This document shows, piece after piece, positions 174 through 60,448 of a stretch of DNA of 64,000 bases (positions within the stretch are counted from its first letter, which is position 1; each line of letters opens with the position of its first letter). The stretch spans positions 14,175-78,174 of the forward strand of contig CAZKJE010000002.1 in the NCBI GenBank assembly GCA_964553015.1. Direction: 5' to 3'. A program made the translations under genes and the position numbers. Under the pieces are notes generated by a model that made no database searches, was not told the DNA's origin, and saw nothing but the letters and a program-made list of their open reading frames with translations. This stretch comes from an uncultured Candidatus Saccharibacteria bacterium. Lineage in GTDB: Bacteria > Patescibacteriota > Minisyncoccia > Phycocordibacterales > UBA9973.

Positions 174-530
174 ATGTTAGATAAGAAAAAAATAAAAGAA
201 AAATTGGAAAAAGAGCGCGATGTTTTGCTCGCCGAGATGAAAGACATGGGCAAGCTCAACACGGAGACTGAAGAATGGGAAGCAACTCCAGAAGAGCAGA
301 CTTTTCCTGAATCCGATCAGAATGATATGGCCGATCGCTTTGAAGATTTTGAAGCGCGAAGCTCCATGATGCGGACGCTCGAACCAAGGCTTAATAATAT
401 TTTAAAAGCGCTTAAGTCGCTAAACAACGACTCATTCGGCAAATGCAAAGTTTGTAAAAAAGATATTGAGATGGCGCGCCTCGAAGCGAATCCTGCGGCC
501 AGAACCTGTAAAAAACATTTAGAAGAGTAG
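174..530 (+). CDS. TraR/DksA-family zinc-finger protein
   Basis: 118 aa. Acidic coiled-coil N-half, then a C-terminal CKVC-x17-CKKH zinc-finger-like motif typical of the DksA/TraR family. Confidence 0.6.
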   Translation: MLDKKKIKEKLEKERDVLLAEMKDMGKLNTETEEWEATPEEQTFPESDQNDMADRFEDFEARSSMMRTLEPRLNNILKALKSLNNDSFGKCKVCKKDIEMARLEANPAARTCKKHLEE

Positions 531-547
531 AATAACAAAAAAATAAA

Positions 548-2140
548 GTGGCTTTTGCCAAAATATACTCAGCGCAAGTAAATTTACTTACCGGAGCTAT
601 CGTAACTATAGAAGTGGATCTCTCCCGAGGCCTGCATTCTTTTAGTGTCGTCGGCCTGCCGGACAAAGCAGTCGATGAATCTAAAGACAGGGTATCGGGC
701 GCGATAAAGAATTCCGGTTTCCAGTCCCCGAAGGCAAAAAATCAAAAAATAATTGTTTCTCTTTCACCGGCCGACTTAAAGAAAGAGGGGCCATTTTTTG
801 ATTTAGGAATTGCCATCTCGTACATGAAAGCAGCGGGAGATATTAAATTTGATTCCGAGAAAAAAATATTTTTAGGCGAGCTAGGCTTGGACGGCACACT
901 TCGCCCTATCCGCGGAGCTTTGCCTTTGGCGCAGGAAGCCAGACGGAAAGGATTTGAAGAAATATATCTGCCGAAAGAAAATGCCTCCGAGGCGGCCTTG
1001 GTGGAAGGTATTAAAATTTTTGGCGCTGAAAGTTTGCAGGAAGTCGTGGAGCATATCGATGAGTATAAAAGACCCCCTCTGTCCGATAAAAATAGGACAT
1101 CTCCCCCTTCGCAGGGGGCGAGGAATAAAATTCCGGTCCAGCCGCAGACAAAAGTAAATTACAAAAAAGAAACAAAGGGCGCAGACTTTTCTGATATTCG
1201 CGGACAGGAAGGCGCCAAGCGCGGGCTCGAGATCGCGGCCGCCGGCGGGCATAATATAGCGATGTATGGCCCGCCCGGCACAGGCAAGACGATGCTGGCC
1301 CGGGCTTTTTCGCAATTGTTGCCGGATCTGCCAATTGATGAAGTACTTGAGCTCACGGGAATACATTCTGTGTCCGGCAGCACGCAAGGGGAGCTTGTGT
1401 GCTTTCCCCCGTTTCGCGCCCCGCACCACACTTCTTCTTATGTTTCTATTATCGGCGGGGGAACGTATCCAAAGCCAGGAGAGGTTACACTCGCGCATCG
1501 CGGCGTTTTATTTCTAGACGAGTTTCCGGAATTTGAGAAGAGGGTTATAGAATCTTTACGGCAGCCGCTTGAAGACAATATCGTTTCCATTTCCCGCGCC
1601 AAGGGCACAGCAGTCTTCCCTTCAAATTTTATTTTAGTGGCCGCCATGAATCCCTGCCCGTGCGGAAACGCTGGGAACAAACAAAAGGCCTGCATCTGCA
1701 AGCCGTCCGATTTAGACAGATATAAAAGGAAACTTTCCGGTCCGATTATAGACCGTATTGACCTCTGGGTTTCAGTCGGCAACGTGGATTATAAAAAACT
1801 CGGCGCAAGTGACGATGAGCGGAACGCAGAGAAAAGTGAAAAAATAAAAGATAGAGTTACCCTAGCCAGAGAAATTCAAAAAAAGAGATTTCAAAAATTT
1901 ACAAAAAAAATCAGCACAAACAGTGAAATGAATGTGAAAGACTTAGGCACGATGGCAAAACTCGATGCAAAAGTTCGCGAACTCTTAGACAACAGTGCCG
2001 AAAATCTAGGCCTGTCCGCTCGCGCCTATCACCGCGTAATAAAAATAGCCCGCACTATTGCCGACTTGGAAAATTCTGAAAACGTAGAAGCGAATCATAT
2101 CTTAGAGGCCATTCAATATAGGCCAAAAGTTAACTCATAG
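548..2140 (+). CDS. comM: YifB/ComM-family Mg-chelatase-like AAA+ ATPase
   Basis: 530 aa. Walker A GPPGTGKT, Walker B LFLDEFPEF, and a ChlI-like C-terminal region ending ANHILEAIQYR. GTG start. Contains a GC-rich palindromic insert at 1101..1122. Confidence 0.85.
   Translation: MAFAKIYSAQVNLLTGAIVTIEVDLSRGLHSFSVVGLPDKAVDESKDRVSGAIKNSGFQSPKAKNQKIIVSLSPADLKKEGPFFDLGIAISYMKAAGDIKFDSEKKIFLGELGLDGTLRPIRGALPLAQEARRKGFEEIYLPKENASEAALVEGIKIFGAESLQEVVEHIDEYKRPPLSDKNRTSPPSQGARNKIPVQPQTKVNYKKETKGADFSDIRGQEGAKRGLEIAAAGGHNIAMYGPPGTGKTMLARAFSQLLPDLPIDEVLELTGIHSVSGSTQGELVCFPPFRAPHHTSSYVSIIGGGTYPKPGEVTLAHRGVLFLDEFPEFEKRVIESLRQPLEDNIVSISRAKGTAVFPSNFILVAAMNPCPCGNAGNKQKACICKPSDLDRYKRKLSGPIIDRIDLWVSVGNVDYKKLGASDDERNAEKSEKIKDRVTLAREIQKKRFQKFTKKISTNSEMNVKDLGTMAKLDAKVRELLDNSAENLGLSARAYHRVIKIARTIADLENSENVEANHILEAIQYRPKVNS
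1101..1122. repeat. GC-rich palindromic element, in frame in comM
   Basis: CTCCCCC-TTCGCA-GGGGGCGAG. The CCCCC/GGGGG stem and TTCGCA loop match the recG copy at 49493..49514. Encodes SPPSQGA. Confidence 0.6.
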
Positions 2141-2142
2141 AG

Positions 2143-2151
2143 TTATCCACA
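2143..2151 (+). promoter_or_regulatory. TTATCCACA motif (identical to the DnaA-box consensus), 9 bp upstream of a -35 box
   Basis: Perfect 9-mer preceded by G. Same motif and orientation at 18821, 19812 and 44720 (variant). Confidence 0.4.
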
Positions 2152-2160
2152 TCTGGCTTG

Positions 2161-2189
2161 TTGACAGTGAACGCTCGTTCACTTATACT
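2161..2189 (+). promoter_or_regulatory. Sigma70-type promoter with a LexA (SOS/Cheo-type) box in the spacer
   Basis: TTGACA (2161..2166), 17-nt spacer, TATACT (2184..2189). The spacer is the inverted repeat GTGAAC-GCTC-GTTCAC (2167..2182), which contains GAAC-N4-GTTC. A lexA homolog lies downstream. Confidence 0.7.
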
Positions 2190-2203
2190 AATTAAGTCGC
2201 AAA

Positions 2204-2253
2204 TACCCCTACCCGGCCTCTCCCTAAAGTAGGGGGAGGAGAAAGGAGGGGGT
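2204..2253 (+). repeat. GC-rich palindromic element in the 5' UTR of the SOS-controlled transcript
   Basis: CCTCTCCCT-AAAGT-AGGGGGAGG with an outer ACCCCT/AGGGGGT pairing. The core resembles part of the 40714..40852 element. Confidence 0.55.
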
Positions 2254-2278
2254 AAATTATAAAATTAAAAACAAAGCT

Positions 2279-2479
2279 ATGAGTCAAACACAATATTTAA
2301 AAATGCTGGAGAGAGAAATCCAAGCAATAAATAAGAGGATAGATCTTAAAATTCTCAAGGGTCAGAATTATCACAAAGAGGCGATAGAACACAAGCTCCT
2401 AATTAGGAAAGTGCGATATCATTCCCGAAGTAACTTTTTGCGTAAATTTTTTCCCACTTTTGCGCAGTTTTCTTTTTAG
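2279..2479 (+). CDS. Hypothetical small basic protein (66 aa), first ORF of the SOS-box transcript
   Basis: ORF lies between the SOS promoter and lexA. No convincing SD at proper spacing and no recognisable family. Confidence 0.35.
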   Translation: MSQTQYLKMLEREIQAINKRIDLKILKGQNYHKEAIEHKLLIRKVRYHSRSNFLRKFFPTFAQFSF

Positions 2480-2506: not shown

Positions 2507-3076
2507 ATGATAAGAAATCCCCATCAGATAAAAATAGAATCTTTCTACGGAGAGAATAAGAGGATGCCGACGTATTCGGAAATGATGAAGCTCTTCGGCT
2601 ACAAATCCAAGAATGCGGTTTTTAAAGTCGTGGAGAAATTGATTGACGCAGGGCTCGTCGCCAAAGATCATCTCGGCCGGTTAGTACCCACACAATCTTT
2701 TGGCGAAGTTCCGATGCTTGGGCTGGTGACTGCCGGTTTGCCTGCAAGTGTGGAAGAAGAGCTCGCAGATACTGTGAGCTTGGACGAATTTTTAATAGAA
2801 AAGAAAGCTTTTACATATATGCTAGAGGTGGACGGGGATTCTATGATAGATGCGCACATAGAAAAGGGGGATATGGTTCTCGTCGAGAAGGCAAACCAGG
2901 CTAAAGATATGCAGATAGTCATCGCCGAAGTGGATGGCGAATTTACGATGAAATATTTTAGGCGTGATGGGAATAAATGTTGGCTCGAGCCGGCCAACAA
3001 AAACTACAAACCGATCTATCCGGAACATTCTTTAAATATAAATGCAGTGGTGAAAGCGGTGATTAGGAAATACTAA
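2507..3076 (+). CDS. lexA: LexA repressor (S24 peptidase)
   Basis: 189 aa. N-terminal winged-HTH region (MPTYSEMMKLFGYKSKNAVFKVVEKLIDAGLV), a GLVTAG linker, and a C-terminal S24 domain with the Ser (GDSM) and Lys (TMKYF) dyad context. Confidence 0.85.
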   Translation: MIRNPHQIKIESFYGENKRMPTYSEMMKLFGYKSKNAVFKVVEKLIDAGLVAKDHLGRLVPTQSFGEVPMLGLVTAGLPASVEEELADTVSLDEFLIEKKAFTYMLEVDGDSMIDAHIEKGDMVLVEKANQAKDMQIVIAEVDGEFTMKYFRRDGNKCWLEPANKNYKPIYPEHSLNINAVVKAVIRKY

Positions 3077-3090
3077 ATAAGATAGGAAAT

Positions 3091-3120
3091 CAAAAAATCC
3101 CCCGAATGGGGATTTTTTGA
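3091..3120. terminator. Bidirectional intrinsic terminator between lexA and hup
   Basis: AAAAAATCCCC-(loop)-GGGGATTTTTT hairpin flanked by an A-run and a T-run, so it can act on both strands. Confidence 0.7.
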
Positions 3121-3166
3121 TTTCCTAATTTCTCTCGAGAGAACCCCACTTGGCGGGGCAGGAATA

Positions 3167-3439
3167 TTACGCAACCATATCCTTCAAACCTTTTGCAGGT
3201 CGGAATTTTGGCACTTTCTTTGCAGCCACTTTGACTTGCTCCCCAGTCTTTGGATTGCGAGCCATGCGAGCAGCGCGAGATTTTACTGAAAAGATTCCAA
3301 AGCCGGCGATCGATACTTCCTGTCCCTTTTTCAAGGTCTGGATGATAGCATCAAACATTCCGTCTACGAGCTCTTCAGCCTGCACTTTTGTGCCGCCTAG
3401 TTTTCCGTGTACCCATTCAGCTAATGCTTGTTTATTCAT
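3167..3439 (-). CDS. hup: DNA-binding protein HU
   Basis: 90 aa. GFGIFSVKSRAARMARNPKTGE beta-arm signature of the HU/IHF family. Confidence 0.9.
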   Translation of the reverse strand: MNKQALAEWVHGKLGGTKVQAEELVDGMFDAIIQTLKKGQEVSIAGFGIFSVKSRAARMARNPKTGEQVKVAAKKVPKFRPAKGLKDMVA

Positions 3440-3530
3440 AATGTAAAAAAATTATTTTTGTAATTCTTTCGACCTTTTAACCCTTATTTTTGATACCTAT
3501 TCATTATATATCAAGGGTTTTTTAGCGCAA

Positions 3531-39145: not shown

Positions 39146-39535
39146 TGGAGATGGGGGAAATTGAATCCCCGTGCAGAAGGTTTTTGCAAAGAAGTCTACA
39201 TGCGTAGCGCGCTTTTTGTTTTAAATTAAAAAATTATGAAACGCGCCAAATATTTTTTAACCGAGTTCTTTTGTTTTGCGAGAGCGTCAGAACAGGCGTT
39301 CAAGCTATCCCGATAATGTTATGCCTCGTCTTATATATCGGAAGTCTATAAGAGAGACACCACCTCAGGCTTACGCGAAAGATGGAGCGAAAGCGAGCGC
39401 ATTACCGAAGTAAGGCGAACGCATTGCTGTGAAAGCTGATTTTGCAATTAGCTGTTGAACGAATTTTTACGAGATTACGTTCATTCTCGGCATGCATCAA
39501 TAACAAATGGCCAACTGTCTATGCCTTGCATCCCC
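39146..39535 (-). ncRNA. ssrA: tmRNA (SsrA)
   Basis: The 5' GGGGATG pairs with the 3' CATCTCC, including the G3:U pair. T-arm GGGGA-TTCAATT-TCCCC, discriminator A, and CCA not encoded. Immediately downstream of smpB. The candidate tag frame ends ...GNALAFAPSFA-TAA, but the resume codon was not determined. Confidence 0.85.
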
Positions 39536-40642: not shown

Positions 40643-40713
40643 TATAAAAATTTTATAATTAAATCTCGCTTTTCGGTGTAATGAGACATAACTTTATATT
40701 AACATAGATTTTT

Positions 40714-40852
40714 ATTCCCCTCTTGAGGGGTGGCTCGCGTGCAAGACGGGGTGGATAATTTACCTCACCCTGCTGCCCTCTCCTGTAAAGGGGAGGGGAA
40801 AATTCATCCACCTCCCTCCGACCCATGTCGGAGTACTCCTCAAGAGGAGAAT
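40714..40852. mobile_element. MITE-like GC-rich element with terminal inverted repeats
   Basis: The left end ATTCCCCTCTTGAGGGGT and the reverse complement of the right end (ATTCTCCTCTTGAGGAGT) match at 16 of 18 positions. T-runs flank the element. The interior holds further hairpins (CCCTCTCC-TGTAAA-GGGGAGGG and CTCCGAC-CCAT-GTCGGAG). It is non-coding. Confidence 0.5.
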
Positions 40853-40926
40853 TTTTTACTCATATACTACTCTAATCCTATAAATAAGGGTTTTTTGACT
40901 TTGCTAGCAACAAAGTGTAAAAATGC

Positions 40927-40960: not shown

Positions 40961-41250
40961 ATCTCATAGATTTTATTTGATTTAATATGAGGTCAAGAGA
41001 TTGTTTCGTATAGTCTCTTGCATATCCCTAAATCAAATGTAGTTTCTCAAAAACGATTAGCGAATTGAGAGATTTTCGCTAAAAACGCTTGAGAAATGAA
41101 GAGCTGAAATCTCTCTGGGTCTGGAGCGCTCGGGTTACCTTTAGCTCTTTGATCCATCTGTTGGTAAAAACCCGAACATCATCGCCGTCGGTTCGAAACA
41201 ACCCTCGGCACCCCACCCAAAGCTTCGGCCGCGGGTGGGTTTTTATTTTT
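40961..41250 (+). ncRNA. Candidate structured non-coding RNA of unknown class (about 290 nt)
   Basis: It has its own promoter. It contains three long perfect-stem hairpins (40975..41038, 41043..41096, 41099..41149). It ends in the intrinsic terminator CCCACCC...GGGTGGG plus TTTTTATTTTT (41212..41250). The only ORF across it is the implausible N-extension of ftsH. Confidence 0.35.
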
Positions 41251-44624: not shown

Positions 44625-44719
44625 ATCTAATCCAGCTTATAGATACTCGGTTTCTGGAAGTCGCTCTTGTGTTCTCTTTTTCGGTGTTTTCTTTTGCGAA
44701 ATTTGCAAAAAAATGGCGG

Positions 44720-44728
44720 TTATCCACT
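44720..44728 (+). promoter_or_regulatory. TTATCCACT motif (one mismatch to TTATCCACA) abutting a -35-like TTGCTA upstream of nrdJ
   Basis: Preceded by G, like the other copies. TTGCTA at 44728..44733, 17 nt, then TTATTA. Confidence 0.35.
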
Positions 44729-44829: not shown

Positions 44830-47124
44830 ATGAAACCAACTGCAAAAATTTCAAAAAGCGAATTAGCAAAAATAAAAACTATCCGAAGGAGAACCGGAGA
44901 AGTGGTTCCGTTTGATCTCGACAGGGTAGCCCGCGCTACATTCAAGGCTTTTGAAGTTACCAGAGAGGGGGGAGAAAAGGAATCGGAAAAAGTTGCTACG
45001 AATGTTTTCAAAATGCTGCTTGACCTTCGGGAAGGCCTTTTGAAATCAAACAAGAGCGCAAAATTTCTGCCGACCGTGGAACTTGTGCAGGATTTTGTTG
45101 AAAAAGAATTGATGAAAGACGGGTTTACGGATACCGCGAAAAAATATATTTTATACCGAAACAAGCGTTCAGAGCTTCGCGCTACTTTCGGGCCGGTGTC
45201 AGAAGCAGTCCGCACCGCGGTTGAAGAATCCAGTAAATATTTCGGAAGCGCGTACTCTGAATATATTTTCTATCAATTTTATTCGCGCTGGGTGCCGGAG
45301 CTTGGCCGCCGCGAGACATGGATAGAAACTGTTGATCGCTACATGGCTTACATGAAAGAAAATCTGGCAAATAAACTTACCGCAAAAGAATATTCAGATG
45401 TGAGACAAGCTATCTTAAATCAGGATATTTGTCCTTCCATGAGGCTTCTCTGGTCTGCGGGCAAGGCCTGCAGACAATCGAACGTCTGGGCATACAACTG
45501 TTCCTACATCGCGCCTACGTGTCCGCAAGATCTAGGAGAGATAATGTATGTTTCAATGTGCGGAGCAGGCTTGGGGTTTGCCGTTGAATGGGAAAATGTT
45601 CAGCAGTTTCCGCAAATCCAAAAGCAAACAAATGAAAAGCCGATCACTCACGTAGTTATAGACAGCAAAGAAGGCTGGGCAGATGCTTTTGTTCTCGGGC
45701 TAACATCTTGGTTTGACGGCAAGGATGCAAAATTTGATTATTCGGGGATCAGGCCGGCCGGCGCACGACTGGAAACAGCAGGCGGTAAAGCATCCGGACC
45801 GCAGCCGCTGATGGATCTAATGGAGTTTGCAAAAAGAAAAATTTTAGCAAAACAGGGACGCAGACTTTCAAACATAGACATGCATGACATCATCTGCCAG
45901 ATCGGCATGATCGTCGTAGCCGGCGGAGTTCGCCGAAGCGCCCTCATCTCCTTGTCAGAACTGGAGGACACAGAGATGCGCGACGCAAAGAAGGGACAAT
46001 TTTATCTGACCGAAGGTCAGCGCAGCATGGCAAACAATTCTGCGGTGTACAACGCAAAGCCGGGAGCAGAAGAATTTCTTGATGAATGGACTTCTCTTGT
46101 AAAATCAAAATCCGGCGAACGCGGAATTTTCAATCGCGCGGGGCTGGAAAAACAAGTGCCGGCTCGCAGATGGGCAGCGATCAAAAATGAAAGACAGATG
46201 GGATTAAATCCTTGCGGAGAAATTTATCTTCGTTCAAAACAATTTTGTAATTTGACCAGCATTGTAATCCGTCCGAAGGACACCGCGGAAACTCTGAAGA
46301 GAAAAATGGAGCTGGCGACACTTCTCGGAACGTATCAGTCCACCCTTACCAATTTCGGATATCTTTCAAAGAAGTGGAAAGAGAACTGCGAAGAAGAAAG
46401 ATTGCTCGGCGTATCGCTCACTGGCTACTATGACAATCCTCTTATACGAACCGATAAAGTTTTGGATATGTTAAAAAAGGATTCAGTAGAAACAAATAAA
46501 AAATATGCAAAACGCTTTGGCATAAATCCTTCTACGGCTATCACCTGCGTAAAACCTCATGGAAATTCCGGGCAGCTCCTCGGCGTCGGCTCCGGCATGC
46601 ACCCTTGGTTTGCTCCTTATTTCATCCGCCGTGTGCGCATTTCTCACACTGATACTCTTTTAAAGATGGCCCGAGATCAGGGAGTGCCATGTGTCCCAGA
46701 AGTAGGACAGGCAGAAGGAAGCGCCACTACGTATGTACTCGAATTTCCAGTCAAGGCGCCGCAGGGAGCAATATTCAAAGATGAAGTTTCCGCTCTTGAT
46801 CTCATGAAAGAATGGAAGAGGCTAAAAGAGCATTTTGTGGAGCACAATCCTTCGGCTACCATATATGTCGGCCCTGACGAATGGATCGCCGTAGGAAACT
46901 TTGTCTACGAAAATTGGGACTGGATCGGCGGACTTTCCTTTCTTCCTCGCTCGGAACACGTGTATCAGCTCGCTCCATACGAGCCCATAACAAAAGAACA
47001 GTACGAACGCCGCACAAGGGCAATCGGCAAGATTGACTTCTCAAAACTTTCTCAATATGAGGCGCAGGATAATACTACCGGCGCCAAAGAATTCGCGTGC
47101 GTTTCAGGCGTCTGTGAAATATAA
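44830..47124 (+). CDS. nrdJ: Class II (adenosylcobalamin-dependent) ribonucleotide reductase
   Basis: 764 aa. N-terminal ATP-cone, active-site NPCGEI and FCNL motifs, and a C-terminal redox pair CVSGVCEI. Confidence 0.85.
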   Translation: MKPTAKISKSELAKIKTIRRRTGEVVPFDLDRVARATFKAFEVTREGGEKESEKVATNVFKMLLDLREGLLKSNKSAKFLPTVELVQDFVEKELMKDGFTDTAKKYILYRNKRSELRATFGPVSEAVRTAVEESSKYFGSAYSEYIFYQFYSRWVPELGRRETWIETVDRYMAYMKENLANKLTAKEYSDVRQAILNQDICPSMRLLWSAGKACRQSNVWAYNCSYIAPTCPQDLGEIMYVSMCGAGLGFAVEWENVQQFPQIQKQTNEKPITHVVIDSKEGWADAFVLGLTSWFDGKDAKFDYSGIRPAGARLETAGGKASGPQPLMDLMEFAKRKILAKQGRRLSNIDMHDIICQIGMIVVAGGVRRSALISLSELEDTEMRDAKKGQFYLTEGQRSMANNSAVYNAKPGAEEFLDEWTSLVKSKSGERGIFNRAGLEKQVPARRWAAIKNERQMGLNPCGEIYLRSKQFCNLTSIVIRPKDTAETLKRKMELATLLGTYQSTLTNFGYLSKKWKENCEEERLLGVSLTGYYDNPLIRTDKVLDMLKKDSVETNKKYAKRFGINPSTAITCVKPHGNSGQLLGVGSGMHPWFAPYFIRRVRISHTDTLLKMARDQGVPCVPEVGQAEGSATTYVLEFPVKAPQGAIFKDEVSALDLMKEWKRLKEHFVEHNPSATIYVGPDEWIAVGNFVYENWDWIGGLSFLPRSEHVYQLAPYEPITKEQYERRTRAIGKIDFSKLSQYEAQDNTTGAKEFACVSGVCEI

Positions 47125-56947: not shown

Positions 56948-59900
56948 ATGCAGAAGCATGAAAACAATAACTCCAAATCAGAAGCAGCTTTGCGCGAAGA
57001 GCGAGTTTTGGAATTTTGGAAAGAAAATAAGATATTTAAAAAGTCGCTGGAGAAAAAATCCCCAAAGGGAGAATTTGTGTTTTATGATGGTCCAGTTACG
57101 GCAAACTCAAAGCCAGTTTTGCATACAATGCTACCTTTTTCTTTCAAAGATGTTATTCCCAGATATAAAACTATGCGCGGATATCATGTACGAAGGAAAG
57201 GCGGTTGGGATACGCATGGGCTTCCGGTAGAACTGCAAATAGAAAAAAAACTTGGGTTCAATTCAAAAGCAGATATTGAAAATTATGGTATTGCAGCTTT
57301 CAATAAATTATGTAAGGACAGTGTTTGGGAGTACGTTGGGGCATGGAAAAGTTTTACCGAACGAATGGGCTACTGGGCAGATCAAGATAATGCATATGTC
57401 ACATATTATAATAATTATATTGAATCTGTTTGGAATATAGTAAAAAAAATAAATGAGCAGAATCTGCTTTATAAAGATTACAAAGTGGTGCCGTGGTGCC
57501 CGAGGTGCGGTACAGCACTGTCTTCGCATGAGCTCGCACAGGGATACGAAGATGTAAAAGATCTGTCAGTGTATGTAAAGTTTAAGATAACTACGCCAGT
57601 GCAGGAAAATTCTGCCGCTTTACCCGCAAGCGGGCTCCGACACGGACAAAATTTTCCCGCATTGGCTCCGCAGTATATCCTCGCCTGGACGACGACGCCG
57701 TGGACCCTGCCCGGGAACGTTGCCTTAGCCGTCGGCGAAAATATTGATTATGTAAAGGTAAAGAGTGGAGAAGAGTTTTATATTCTCGCCAAAGAGAAGC
57801 TTTCAATCATAACCGAACCATATGAGATAGTGGAAGAGGTCAAGGGCGCGGGGCTAGTAGGGCTCGAATACGAGCCGTTGTATCCATATCTTGCAAATAC
57901 GGTTTCGGATACAGAAAAACCAAAATTAGAAAAGGCATACAAGGTGCACAAGGCAAACTTTGTGACCACAGATGACGGCACCGGCGTGGTGCATACGGCT
58001 GTGATGTATGGGCAAGATGACTTTATGCTCGGAACAGAAGTCGGCCTGCCGAAGCACCACCTCGTAGGTCTCGATGGCAAATTTTTAGCAGGCACAGGTA
58101 TTTTTGAAGGACGATTTGTAAAAGATGAAGAAGTCGCCGTAGATATCATTAAAGACTTGGCGCACCGCGGGCTTCTTTTCAAAAAAGAAAAATACGAGCA
58201 CTCGTATCCGCACTGCTGGCGCTGTAAAACTCCGCTCATATATTACGCGCGGGATTCTTGGTATATCCGGATGTCTGATCCTAGAATAAAAGCCGAAATG
58301 ATAAAGGAGAATAAAGAAATAAACTGGGAGCCGGAGCATATTCGCGACGGGCGGTTTGGGCAGTGGCTGGAAGAAATAAAAGACTGGGCAATATCCCGCG
58401 AACGGTACTGGGGCACGCCGCTGCCGGTCTGGGCCTGCGAAGCGTGTAAAAAAATTGAAGTAGTAGGAAGCGTAGAAGATCTAAAAAGTAGAACCAAAAA
58501 GTCTGGCAATAAATATTTTGTGATGCGGCACGGCGAGGCTGTCGATAACGCCAAGCATTTGGGTGATCCGAAAGGCGATCCAAATAATCACCTGACTGAT
58601 AAAGGGAAAAAAGAAATAATTCTTACCGCAGAAGAATTAAAAAATAAAAAAATTGATTTTATCTTTACGTCTTCTTTTCTGCGAACCAAAGAAACAGCAG
58701 AGGTCTTGAGAAAAGAACTAGGTTTGGAGCAAGAAAAAGTAATAGTTGAAGATAGATTGCATGAACACAATGAGGGAGACACTAAGCTCGTTCGCAAAAG
58801 GATGGCCGACTTTATTTATGAAATAGAAAAAAATTACGAAAATAAAAATATCTTAATAATTTCGCACGGAAATCCTATCTGGATCCTGCAGAAAACCGCT
58901 TTGGGCTTGTCTATAAATAATTTTACAGAAGGCGAGATGCTGCATACCGGCGAAGTCAAAGAATTAGATTTTATACCGCTACCGCATAATGAAAATTATG
59001 AGCTTGATCTGCACAAGCCTTATATAGATGAAATAAATCTTGTTTGTTCATGTGGTGGAAAATTAACACGCACGAAAGAAGTCATGGACGTGTGGTTTGA
59101 TTCGGGAGGCATGTCTTTTGCGCAGGATCATTACCCTTTCGATAACGCTTCCGGTAAATCTTTTGACGGCAAAGAACTTTTATATCCGGCGGATTTTATT
59201 TCAGAGGGCATAGATCAGACGCGCGGATGGTTTTACACCTTGCATGCTGTTGGAATTCTCTTGGGGCGGGGCAAGGCTTACAAAAACGTAATCTGCCTTG
59301 GCCATCTTCTCGACGCTAAGGGCAAAAAAATGTCCAAATCTCTCGGCAACGTCGTCGAGCCGTTTCTTGCGATGGATACATATGGCGTGGATACTTTGCG
59401 TTTGTGGATGTATTCCATAAATCAGCCGGGCGAATCCAAGAATTTTGATGAGAAAACAGTAGCGCTTCTTTCTCAGCAGATTTTTGGCTTGCTTTACAAT
59501 GTGCTTGCGTTTTATGAACTTTATCGCGATGTTTCGCTAGAGCCTAGAGCCTATGGCCTAAAGCCCAGCAATATTTTAGATAAATGGATCTTGGCGCGTC
59601 TAGATGAGTTGACAGAGCTTGCAACCAAAAATTTAGATAACTACAAATTGCTGGAGCCAGTGCGGGGCATGAGAGACTTTATCGGCGATCTTTCTACTTG
59701 GTATTTGCGCCGTTCGCGCGACAGGATAAAATCCTCCTCCGCACAAGGCTCCGGTGGAACAAGGGAAGGAGATGAAGCGAAGGAAACTCTGTACTATGTG
59801 CTAAAAACCTTGGCAAAACTCATGGCTCCGCTCGCGCCGTTTGCCGCTGAAGACATCTGGCTTAAGTTAAAAAATGAAGATGATGAAGAAAGCGTGCATT

Positions 59901-60448
59901 TGGCGAGCTGGCCGGAAGTAAAAAAGACATCTTTTATCTCCAAGTTGCTTAAAAATGATCCAAGCAAAAAAATAATTGAAAATATGGAGAGCGTCAGAAG
60001 AGTAGTCACACTCGGACTCGAAGCTCGACAGAAAACCGGAATAAAAGTCCGCCAGCCTCTTAATCAATTACGAATTAAAAATTACGAATTAGGAATTGAG
60101 TATGCAGACTTGATTAGAGAAGAGCTGAATGTCAGAGAAGTTATTTTTGATAATTCTATTGAAGGCGAGGTGTGGCTCGATATAAGAATAAACGAAGAGC
60201 TCAAAGCTGAAGGGGATTACAGGGAGTTTGTCCGCGCGCTGCAGGATATGAGAAAGAAAACCGGACTGACGCCGAGCGACGTGGTCTCTGTTACTTTTGA
60301 AACAAACAAAGCAGGCAAGGAACTTATTAAAAAATTCGAAGCTGAAATGAAAAAAACAGTGCTTGTCTCTACGATAGAATTTTCGGAAAATGAAGGAGAA
60401 AAAATAAAAATCGACAATCTTCACTTCAGGATAAAAATTGATAAATAA
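56948..60448 (+). CDS. ileS: Isoleucine--tRNA ligase with a nested histidine-phosphatase domain
   Basis: 1166 aa. IleRS hallmarks: WDTHGLPVE, editing-domain [10 protein letters not shown] and [13 protein letters not shown], KMSKS. An extra domain of about 163 aa lies at residues 522-684. Confidence 0.9.
   Translation: [1166 protein letters not shown]
58511..58999 (+). other. Histidine-phosphatase (PGAM-like) domain inserted within ileS
   Basis: Ordered motifs [43 protein letters not shown] and LIISHGNPI. Flanked by IleRS CxxC (ACEACKK) and CxC (VCSCGG) segments. Confidence 0.75.

Follow-up and report, generated by a model that had tools for sequence, protein, structure and literature searches.

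How is lexA, the gene of the SOS repressor, controlled in a lineage of uncultivated bacteria, and what is controlled together with it? The question is raised by a 64-kb stretch of DNA (the window; G+C content about 42%) in which lexA is preceded by a small open reading frame (ORF) and by a promoter with an inverted repeat between its hexamers. The best matches of the window LexA and of the small ORF lie in metagenome-assembled genomes named Candidatus Nomurabacteria, Paceibacterota or Minisyncoccia, and the clade is referred to here as 'Nomurabacteria' (Nomurabacteria/Paceibacteria, Patescibacteria, the candidate phyla radiation or CPR). For comparison, one genome per GTDB species was scanned with the window LexA protein, which gave 80 species representatives with LexA 73-86% identical and, with the window itself, a conservation set of 81 sequences. 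With a probability of roughly 0.85, we read the locus as the autoregulated promoter of a two-gene operon encoding a small protein and LexA, with a DnaA-box-like site upstream and a hairpin in the 5' untranslated region (UTR) that is carried as a passenger.

A palindrome fills the spacer of the lexA promoter

An original prediction, made from the letters of this stretch alone, had described a near-perfect promoter (TTGACA-17 nt-TATACT) upstream of the small ORF and lexA. Its coordinates proved right: the promoter matches 11 of 12 consensus positions with a 17-nt spacer, it is the top promoter-like site between positions 1500 and 3700, and its -35 and -10 hexamers are kept in 78 and 76 of the 81 sequences, respectively. 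The GAAC-N4-GTTC repeat pointed out in the spacer is likewise present, and it is a perfect 8+8 repeat (AGTGAACG-CT-CGTTCACT, Table 1) rather than the 6+6 repeat first noted, with the core GTGAAC-N4-GTTCAC at 2167-2182 and GAAC-N4-GTTC at 2169-2180. GAAC-N4-GTTC lies between the two hexamers, upstream of the small ORF, in all 81 sequences, and the longer form GTGAACGNNCGTTCAC (GTGAACG-NN-CGTTCAC) was found in 80 of the promoters. The spacer measures 17 nt in 55 sequences and 18 nt in 25, and the centre of the palindrome is CT or AG across the relatives, i.e. both orientations occur, as expected of a symmetric dimer site.

The order of the module in the relatives is (G)TTATCCACA(G), 8-10 nt, TTGACA, palindrome, TATACT, a variable 5' UTR, an ORF of 62-75 amino acids (aa) and lexA. 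Its conserved blocks, namely the DnaA-box-like TTATCCACA, the -35 hexamer, the palindrome and the -10 hexamer, stay in register, and the sequence between and outside them is essentially without information content. Such a conserved module amid unconserved flanks in 81 sequences is, on the alignment, a four-element phylogenetic footprint, so its elements are not there by chance. TTATCCACA, the -35 hexamer, GTGAAC-N4-GTTCAC and TATACT were all retained in six distant loci in which the small gene is followed by lexA and LexA is 54-65% identical, and the N4 of the distant GTGAAC loci differs (TCTA, GATT, GAAC or GATC).

The palindrome co-varies with the recognition helix of LexA

The product of the window lexA matched Peptidase_S24 (PF00717, E = 5.4e-27, residues 69-181) and scored 118 bits on the NCBIfam lexA equivalog TIGR00498, for which the cut-off is 110.95. 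A phmmer alignment placed its residues 18-186 on residues 23-196 of E. coli LexA, with VTAG facing VAAG at the Ala-Gly cleavage site, GDSM facing GMSM at the Ser and TMK facing TVK at the Lys (Ala84-Gly85, Ser119 and Lys156 in E. coli LexA). By these matches, the window gene encodes a true LexA in which the cleavage site and the catalytic dyad are both present. The N-terminal domain aligned as well (residues 18-60 with E. coli LexA 23-65, phmmer), helix 3 included. The public record starts lexA at an internal Met at 2564 (170 aa, P0121) and not at 2507; comparison with the relatives and the alignment to E. coli LexA support the upstream start, which gives a protein of 188-189 aa that includes helix 1 of the DNA-binding domain.

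One locus in which lexA precedes the small gene (L161) carries the promoter GTTATTCACA-TTGACG-GTGTAC-GGAT-GTACAC-C-TATACT, with the same base altered in both half-sites, and helix 3 of its LexA reads KSINSVSKL as against KSKNAVFKV. A pairing prediction was set beforehand, according to which close relatives of this locus should sort by helix 3, and four further loci were looked up. The two species with KSINSVTKL carried GTGTAC-GAAC-GTACAC (P0392) and GTGTAC-AATT-GTACAC (P0402), and the two with KSKNAVFKL (P0398 and P0419) carried GTGAAC-GATC-GTTCAC, within the same surrounding promoter in all four. In total, KSINSV was paired with GTGTAC in three independent species, and KSKNAV with GTGAAC in two sister species and all Nomurabacteria. 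If the specificity of LexA had changed, both half-sites would be expected to change symmetrically along with residues of the base-reading helix, as is seen here, which suggests that the palindrome is very probably the LexA operator, as had been proposed for it originally. GAAC-N4-GTTC is also the experimentally established LexA motif in Firmicutes and Actinobacteria (PMC4951493).

A conserved small gene accompanies lexA

The basic 66-aa ORF that had been placed between this promoter and lexA was confirmed in position and charge (isoelectric point, pI, 10.4), and its conservation upstream of lexA in relatives, which the original prediction had left to be checked, was complete: each of the 80 related loci has a homologue immediately before lexA. 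None of the 81 sequences interrupts the reading frame, which is 62-75 aa long. Differences amount to 0.55 at third codon positions and to 0.25 and 0.17 at the first two, and 1499 synonymous codon changes stand against 1123 non-synonymous ones, a substitution pattern by which the small ORF is a real gene under purifying selection. Its first 50 residues are highly conserved, on a par with LexA (consensus MSQxQYLKMLEREIQKINKKIDLKILxGExYxKEAREHKLLLxKVRYH), and the C-terminal tail is variable, hydrophobic or aromatic. The AlphaFold2 model is an antiparallel helical hairpin with helices at residues 3-27 and 32-57 (mean predicted local distance difference test, pLDDT, 86). The protein had no sequence match in Pfam, NCBIfam, PHROG or PDB, and fold searches against PDB and viral structures returned generic helical hairpins alone (E > 0.5).

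A profile search of 1.84 billion representatives assembled at least 282 clusters at 50% identity. All seven of the distant members that could be placed adjoin lexA (LexA 49-65% identical to that of the window), and altogether the small gene stands beside lexA in 87 of 87 loci examined, in both orders (small-lexA and lexA-small). That the linkage holds in every lineage checked, whichever gene comes first, points to a function connected with LexA or the SOS response. In most species the stop codon of the small ORF touches the lexA start or overlaps with it, and downstream of lexA there is a terminator. The small ORF is a conserved gene co-transcribed with lexA, and hence its joint SOS induction with lexA, put forward originally, is what we would predict as well.

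Two functions were weighed. A role as LexA accessory factor, i.e. a co-repressor or a modulator of self-cleavage made in fixed proportion with LexA, is a plausible one to which we give somewhat less than even odds. Invariable adjacency in both orders, with overlapping or nearly touching genes, is typical of interacting partners, the first 50 residues are conserved as strongly as LexA itself, and the modelled protein is a compact helical hairpin with no apparent enzymatic features. Precedents by analogy are DdrR (78-81 aa), which in Acinetobacter is always beside umuDAb and acts as corepressor with the LexA-like UmuDAb (PMC7273328), and gp7 of phage GIL01, which binds LexA, enhances its DNA binding and inhibits its cleavage (PMC4551915). 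However, the small protein resembles none of the solved small LexA partners in sequence or fold; a PDB-sequence profile search for homology to gp7 or DdrR gave nothing at E < 0.8, DdrR itself not being compared directly. In addition, the adjacency would fit an effector gene equally.

An SOS effector, for example an inhibitor of cell division or replication, is the more doubtful of the two. By analogy with yneA and sosA, described in two reports as small LexA-controlled inhibitor genes beside lexA (PMC6851548, PMC13396833), the gene lies beside lexA and under a putative LexA operator; it is in Nomurabacteria the sole gene besides lexA behind that operator, so its product would be the main one induced; and the protein is basic, with a short hydrophobic tail that could be a membrane-targeting or degradation signal. 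However, unlike YneA and SosA it appears to have no transmembrane segment or LysM-type domain, since two amphipathic helices and a hydrophobic tail of at most 12 residues, too short to span a membrane, were all that was seen by inspection (no dedicated predictor was used). It matches no family, and in Pfam and NCBIfam it showed no similarity to the known division inhibitors SulA, YneA, SosA, SidA, DivS and ChiZ. One-for-one production with its own repressor would moreover be unusual for a checkpoint effector, and the known inhibitor genes are usually divergent from lexA, not co-translated with it. The role as division inhibitor floated in the original prediction stays speculative on these grounds, and order-independent adjacency, translational coupling and the absence of a membrane anchor tilt the choice weakly and slightly towards a LexA partner.

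A DnaA-box-like element in phase with the promoter

The motif seen earlier 9 bp upstream of the -35 hexamer is GTTATCCACA; what had escaped recognition is that it contains TTATCCACA, which is the exact consensus 9-mer of the bacterial DnaA box. A perfect TTATCCACA is present in 77 of the 81 lexA-operon promoters, a conservation equal to that of the operator. The gap between box and -35 hexamer is 9 nt in 57 sequences, 8 nt in 16 and 10 nt in 5, and in distant lineages it is 0, 9-10 or 19-20 nt; gaps of whole helical turns are expected of a protein that must face RNA polymerase.

Outside lexA promoters, only about 28 distinct perfect copies of TTATCCACA were found in 1.48 Mb. Most of them are (G)GTTATCCACA just upstream of promoter-like sequences of varied genes, the targets including the operon of a transporter and ribonucleotide reductase (RNR; L137, L141, L146 and L155), a dksA-like/comM operon, carA, argH, a csoR-like gene and two surface-protein genes of the window (copies at 18821 and 19812); a further window copy, with one mismatch, lies upstream of RNR (44720). 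Taken together, these copies look like a small regulon of a box-binding factor, which is probably DnaA. The dnaA-dnaN spacer of a single locus (L059) holds GAGTTATCCACTTATCAACAG, i.e. two adjacent boxes with one mismatch each, a count that is not significant alone.

Two observations on layout were made in passing. At other window promoters (18820-18830, 19811-19820 and 44719-44728), (G)GTTATCCACA is located just upstream of the -35 box or replaces it. The promoter of a csoR/frmR-like repressor gene (L150, 12344-12390) repeats the layout of the lexA promoter, with TTATCCACA, TTGACA, a palindromic operator (GTATACCCCC-A-GGGGGGTATAC) in the spacer and a -10 hexamer.

We put the chance that TTATCCACA is a DnaA box serving as transcription-factor site slightly above even. 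A lineage-specific activator site, or an upstream promoter element read by RNA polymerase, is a credible but lesser candidate, to which the fixed, phased distance to the -35 hexamer at many unrelated promoters, sometimes in the very place of the -35 box, would be congenial. It would leave aside that the 9-mer equals the DnaA-box consensus exactly, that near-consensus tandem copies occur in the dnaA-dnaN spacer of L059 and that the targets include the operon of RNR, a classic case of DnaA control in E. coli. The roughly 28 non-lexA copies are too few for a general promoter element.

A dispersed palindromic element in the 5' UTR

The GC-rich hairpin of the 5' UTR, which the original prediction had built into the control of the operon, is indeed present and stable (-30.3 kcal/mol, z = -3.1, with 2 of 200 shuffles as stable), but it is not an intrinsic control element. 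Hairpins of the window's family occupy this spot in about 9 of the 81 sequences, and the relatives either lack a GC-rich hairpin in this UTR or have one from a set of at least eight families unrelated to one another. On either side of the inserted hairpin block, the window sequence can be aligned with the short UTR of L007. The window's family also has a member in recG of L155/L156 (L155 8340-8390), 94% identical over 34 nt and in frame, where it adds YPYPASPYIGGGALSFSKGGGG, which is absent from the window RecG. Occurrence in about 9 of 81 sequences together with an in-frame recG copy in another organism indicates that the window hairpin, as far as these comparisons reach, is a copy of a dispersed palindromic insertion element and not a dedicated regulatory structure. 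It may nevertheless stabilise the mRNA.

This hairpin family has one copy in the 64-kb window, which contains several other GC-rich palindromes. One of them, within tig (12722-13810, - strand), spans 13251-13310 with -40.9 kcal/mol and is translated as a Pro/Gly-rich linker (TPPQTPPQEGGAPSPSGKAGE); others are located at 40690-40870 and at 41181-41240, the latter inside ftsH, and another palindromic family was found in the tail of the gene upstream of RNR. We know of no description, for these bacteria, of GC-rich palindromes that lie between genes as well as within the reading frames of conserved ones. A hairpin-plus-start module (GCGTCGCGCC...GGCGCGACGTGATTCGCAAAATC-ATG) was found with about 95% identity in the 5' UTR of the HU gene of L001 (5420-5465, - strand) and in the lexA-operon UTRs of L006, L068, L043, L048 and L051; from this distribution, it may be a transferable leader or translation-initiation cassette.

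A functional cis-regulatory RNA (an attenuator, a stability element, a sensor or a protein-binding site) is an improbable reading of the hairpin. Its stability is high, about 40% of the relatives have some GC-rich UTR hairpin, so structured leaders may be tolerated or favoured, and one family (type C) is the hairpin-plus-start-codon module common to the UTR of an HU gene. Conservation is lacking, however, as the relatives have at least eight unrelated families, many UTRs of 30-50 nt with no hairpin, and leaderless variants; only the inserted block sets the window UTR apart from the short one of L007, and the same family is in frame inside recG elsewhere. For the UTR, Rfam gave no gathering-score match in the window or in 15 related loci and chance-level matches only at E <= 5 (positions 2100-2520 were also searched permissively). 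The hairpin was also considered as a terminator and rejected, there being no U-tract on either strand.

Transcription start and translation

Judged by the distance to the -10 box, transcription would start at about 2195-2196, at an AAGTCG sequence (Table 1). GTC[GA] occurs 6-14 nt past the -10 box in 58 of the 80 relatives, as against 13% in shuffles. As A(A/G)GTCG, the motif is found at the predicted start or shortly past it in 58 of 80 species; in about a dozen of them it is the loop sequence of a small hairpin with a varying stem (GACC/GGTC, AGCC/GGCT or AACC/GGTT), and the leader of the HU gene (3460-3470, - strand) has a similar GGTCGAA. The length of the 5' UTR among the relatives ranges from 6 to 139 nt, and in some of them the small ORF or lexA starts 6 nt past the -10 box (leaderless variants).

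A Shine-Dalgarno-like sequence was found in only 3 of 39 window genes, and in several (e.g. 19866, 50563 and, on the - strand, 12722) a -10-like hexamer precedes the start codon by 6-7 nt, which suggests that translation may widely be leaderless or Shine-Dalgarno-independent. GGAGG in the hairpin was rejected as a ribosome-binding site, lying about 30 nt from the ATG in a window where 36 of 39 genes go without such a sequence.

The putative operator is confined to lexA operons in the sampled sequence

The original prediction could be challenged by looking for the palindrome at other SOS genes, and about 1.6 Mb from a few genomic neighbourhoods were searched, a sample that held no recA, uvrA or Nomurabacteria dinB; no further site was found in it. 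In the window no second operator was found even with three mismatches allowed, both of the 3-mismatch matches being inside ORFs and rejected, and the only other GAAC-N4-GTTC of the 64 kb, at 39290, lies inside the transfer-messenger RNA (tmRNA) gene and was taken as chance. The lexA neighbourhoods of 80 species (622 kb), the RNR neighbourhoods of 80 metagenome loci (795 kb) and the 20-kb loci of the sister lineage gave no further site either. In the sampled loci, recJ, recG, comM and RNR are without an operator site. RNR was rejected as an SOS target: neither in the window nor in 80 related loci is it preceded by an operator, a lone GTTCACT half-site being all that was seen.

The content of the operon differs between lineages. 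In Nomurabacteria it consists of the small ORF and lexA alone and is closed by a terminator, and dinB, ygjP and nudix were not found in the sampled Nomurabacteria loci. In the sister lineage the operon is longer, with the gene order lexA-small-nudix-(nudix)-rarA-ygjP-dinB behind the operator, and in L168 no gap exceeds 10 nt. By operon membership, the damage-tolerance genes rarA and dinB of that lineage are under the putative operator, and judged by gene content this is a recognisable SOS operon.

Several points weigh against the assignment of the palindrome to LexA. A regulon beyond the operon itself was not demonstrated by the searches above. The N-terminal domain of the window LexA had no match to Pfam LexA_DNA_bind at E <= 0.01, whereas the LexA of some relatives carry PF01726. 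Sanchez-Osuna, Barbe and Erill reportedly devoted a study in 2017 (Environ Microbiol 19:3465) to the SOS network of the Patescibacteria, the superphylum and the regulator considered here. A later paper from that laboratory lists the study with examples of LexA motifs that are direct repeats, and a different motif may therefore be in use in part of the superphylum. That the palindrome is the operator of another regulator, with LexA binding elsewhere or to another motif, is nevertheless very unlikely: the absence of the palindrome from other SOS genes in the sampled sequence and the grouping with direct repeats in the later paper would suit it, but the half-sites co-vary with the LexA recognition helix, the site was found at lexA operons only, it fits the established Gram-positive LexA motif and the operon encodes no other DNA-binding protein.

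Gene neighbourhood

The features of the locus are collected in Table 1. Beyond the lexA terminator, the HU gene is followed by RNase Y and ClpP, convergent to the operon, and farther in the window lie pyrimidine genes, trigger factor, NusA, type IV pilus genes, recJ, comEC, tmRNA/smpB, ftsH, recG, argS and ileS. RNR is usually the second gene of its operon in the relatives (L081-L160), behind the gene of a small membrane protein with the motif PFRPPNIEPI that may be part of a vitamin or cobalamin transporter; the window lacks that upstream gene, and its RNR has a promoter of its own. The isoleucyl-tRNA synthetase of the window (56948-60448, 1166 aa) has a His_Phos_1 (histidine-phosphatase) domain inserted at residues 524-611, within the catalytic domain.

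Table 1. Position of the features discussed in the text, in window coordinates
Feature	Position	Strand	Remark
DksA-like zinc-finger protein	174-530		
ComM/YifB	548-2140		
DnaA-box-consensus element GTTATCCACA	2142-2151	+	TTATCCACA at 2143-2151, 9 nt ahead of -35
-35 hexamer TTGACA	2161-2166	+	
Putative LexA operator AGTGAACG-CT-CGTTCACT	2166-2183	+	Perfect 8+8 inverted repeat filling the -35/-10 spacer
-10 hexamer TATACT	2184-2189	+	One base past the palindrome in all sequences
AAGTCG	2194-2199	+	At the predicted transcription start
GC-rich palindromic element (putative insertion)	2204-2254	+	Stable 5' UTR hairpin
Small ORF	2279-2479	+	66 aa, pI 10.4, predicted helical-hairpin protein, uncharacterised family
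lexA	2507-3076	+	189 aa; Peptidase_S24 and TIGR00498 matches
Terminator-like hairpin, bidirectional	3083-3127	both	20-pair stem, T-runs on either strand; common to the lexA operon and the convergent HU gene
HU gene	3167-3439	-	Convergent to the lexA operon
Class II ribonucleotide reductase (RNR)	44830-47124		

Discussion

From the sequence elements and their deep conservation, the co-variation of operator and helix, and a small ORF that is coding and linked to lexA, we infer LexA binding, DnaA binding, a transcription start and damage induction at this promoter. A LexA dimer on the 16-bp GTGAAC-N4-GTTCAC would fill the spacer and keep RNA polymerase off the promoter; the exclusion, already envisaged in the original prediction, follows from geometry, with an operator that fills the spacer and ends one base from the -10 box. 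Upon DNA damage, RecA-stimulated self-cleavage of LexA, for which the Ala-Gly site, the Ser and the Lys are present, would free the promoter, and the small protein and new LexA would then be made together off one mRNA devoid of a Shine-Dalgarno sequence. TTATCCACA, one helical turn ahead of the -35 hexamer and most probably a DnaA box, would be a second and independent protein site that probably modulates the same promoter, and the GC-rich hairpin of the 5' UTR would be a passenger copy of a dispersed palindromic insertion element.

The proposed mechanism matters in three respects. The change from GTGAAC to GTGTAC with three substitutions in the recognition helix would be a natural specificity switch that pins down which residues read which base. 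The small protein is widespread and unannotated, and if it were a LexA modulator or the main SOS output it would fill a gap in the DNA-damage response of reduced genomes. The phased DnaA-box consensus at lexA and RNR promoters suggests a link of replication initiation to the damage response. It is an attractive but doubtful extension of these points that in a large clade of ultra-small Patescibacteria the SOS response has shrunk to LexA and an obligate partner of 62-75 residues, either a new LexA co-factor or the sole effector, with DnaA and LexA jointly setting the repressor level via the phased DnaA box.

Self-repression of lexA through a GAAC-N4-GTTC-type box is textbook, and the operator part of our reading extends this known mechanism to another uncultivated lineage; the 2017 study probably covered it already. 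How new the small partner, the TTATCCACA element and the palindrome are likewise depends on that study of the same superphylum. The locus resembles the Gram-positive SOS box (Cheo box) of Firmicutes and Actinobacteria in two respects: a GAAC-N4-GTTC repeat overlaps the lexA core promoter, and the Ala-Gly site and the Ser/Lys pair are present in the repressor. It differs from it in several ways: the flanks are GTGAAC/GTTCAC and not CGAAC/GTTCG, a single site exactly fills a 17-18-nt spacer where Gram-positive lexA promoters have tandem sites, in a sister lineage the site has become GTGTAC-N4-GTACAC and the recognition helix has changed with it, and no further regulon members were found in the sampled sequence.

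DnaA boxes are known as transcription-factor sites at E. coli dnaA and nrdAB and in the dnaA regulon of B. subtilis. The lexA promoter would resemble such DnaA-regulated promoters in having the consensus 9-mer just upstream of, or abutting, the -35 hexamer, with the box also at an RNR promoter and before dnaN, and to our knowledge a conserved DnaA box at a lexA promoter has not been described. The 5' UTR hairpin is comparable to Rickettsia palindromic elements and to repetitive extragenic palindromic (REP) sequences and miniature inverted-repeat transposable elements (MITE), as short GC-rich palindromes that are intergenic as well as in frame and common to organisms at unrelated sites, but it belongs to other sequence families and has a low copy number, with one copy of the window family in 64 kb.

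Small LexA-controlled inhibitors encoded beside lexA are known in Gram-positive bacteria (YneA, SosA, DivS and ChiZ), and SulA and SidA are known elsewhere. The small gene described here shares with YneA, SosA, DivS and ChiZ the position adjoining lexA under putative LexA control, but its protein has no apparent transmembrane or LysM segment and no homology to them, and it is on the same transcript as lexA rather than divergent. It also parallels DdrR with UmuDAb and gp7 with LexA as a small (50-81 aa), lineage-restricted protein always encoded beside the gene of an S24 repressor and behind the same operator; it has no sequence or fold match to them, and here the genes are co-transcribed and often overlapping rather than divergent. 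Set against these systems, the locus is a variant of the Gram-positive-type autoregulated lexA promoter, made distinct by an obligate small partner gene, a phased DnaA-box-like site and a specificity switch in a sister lineage.

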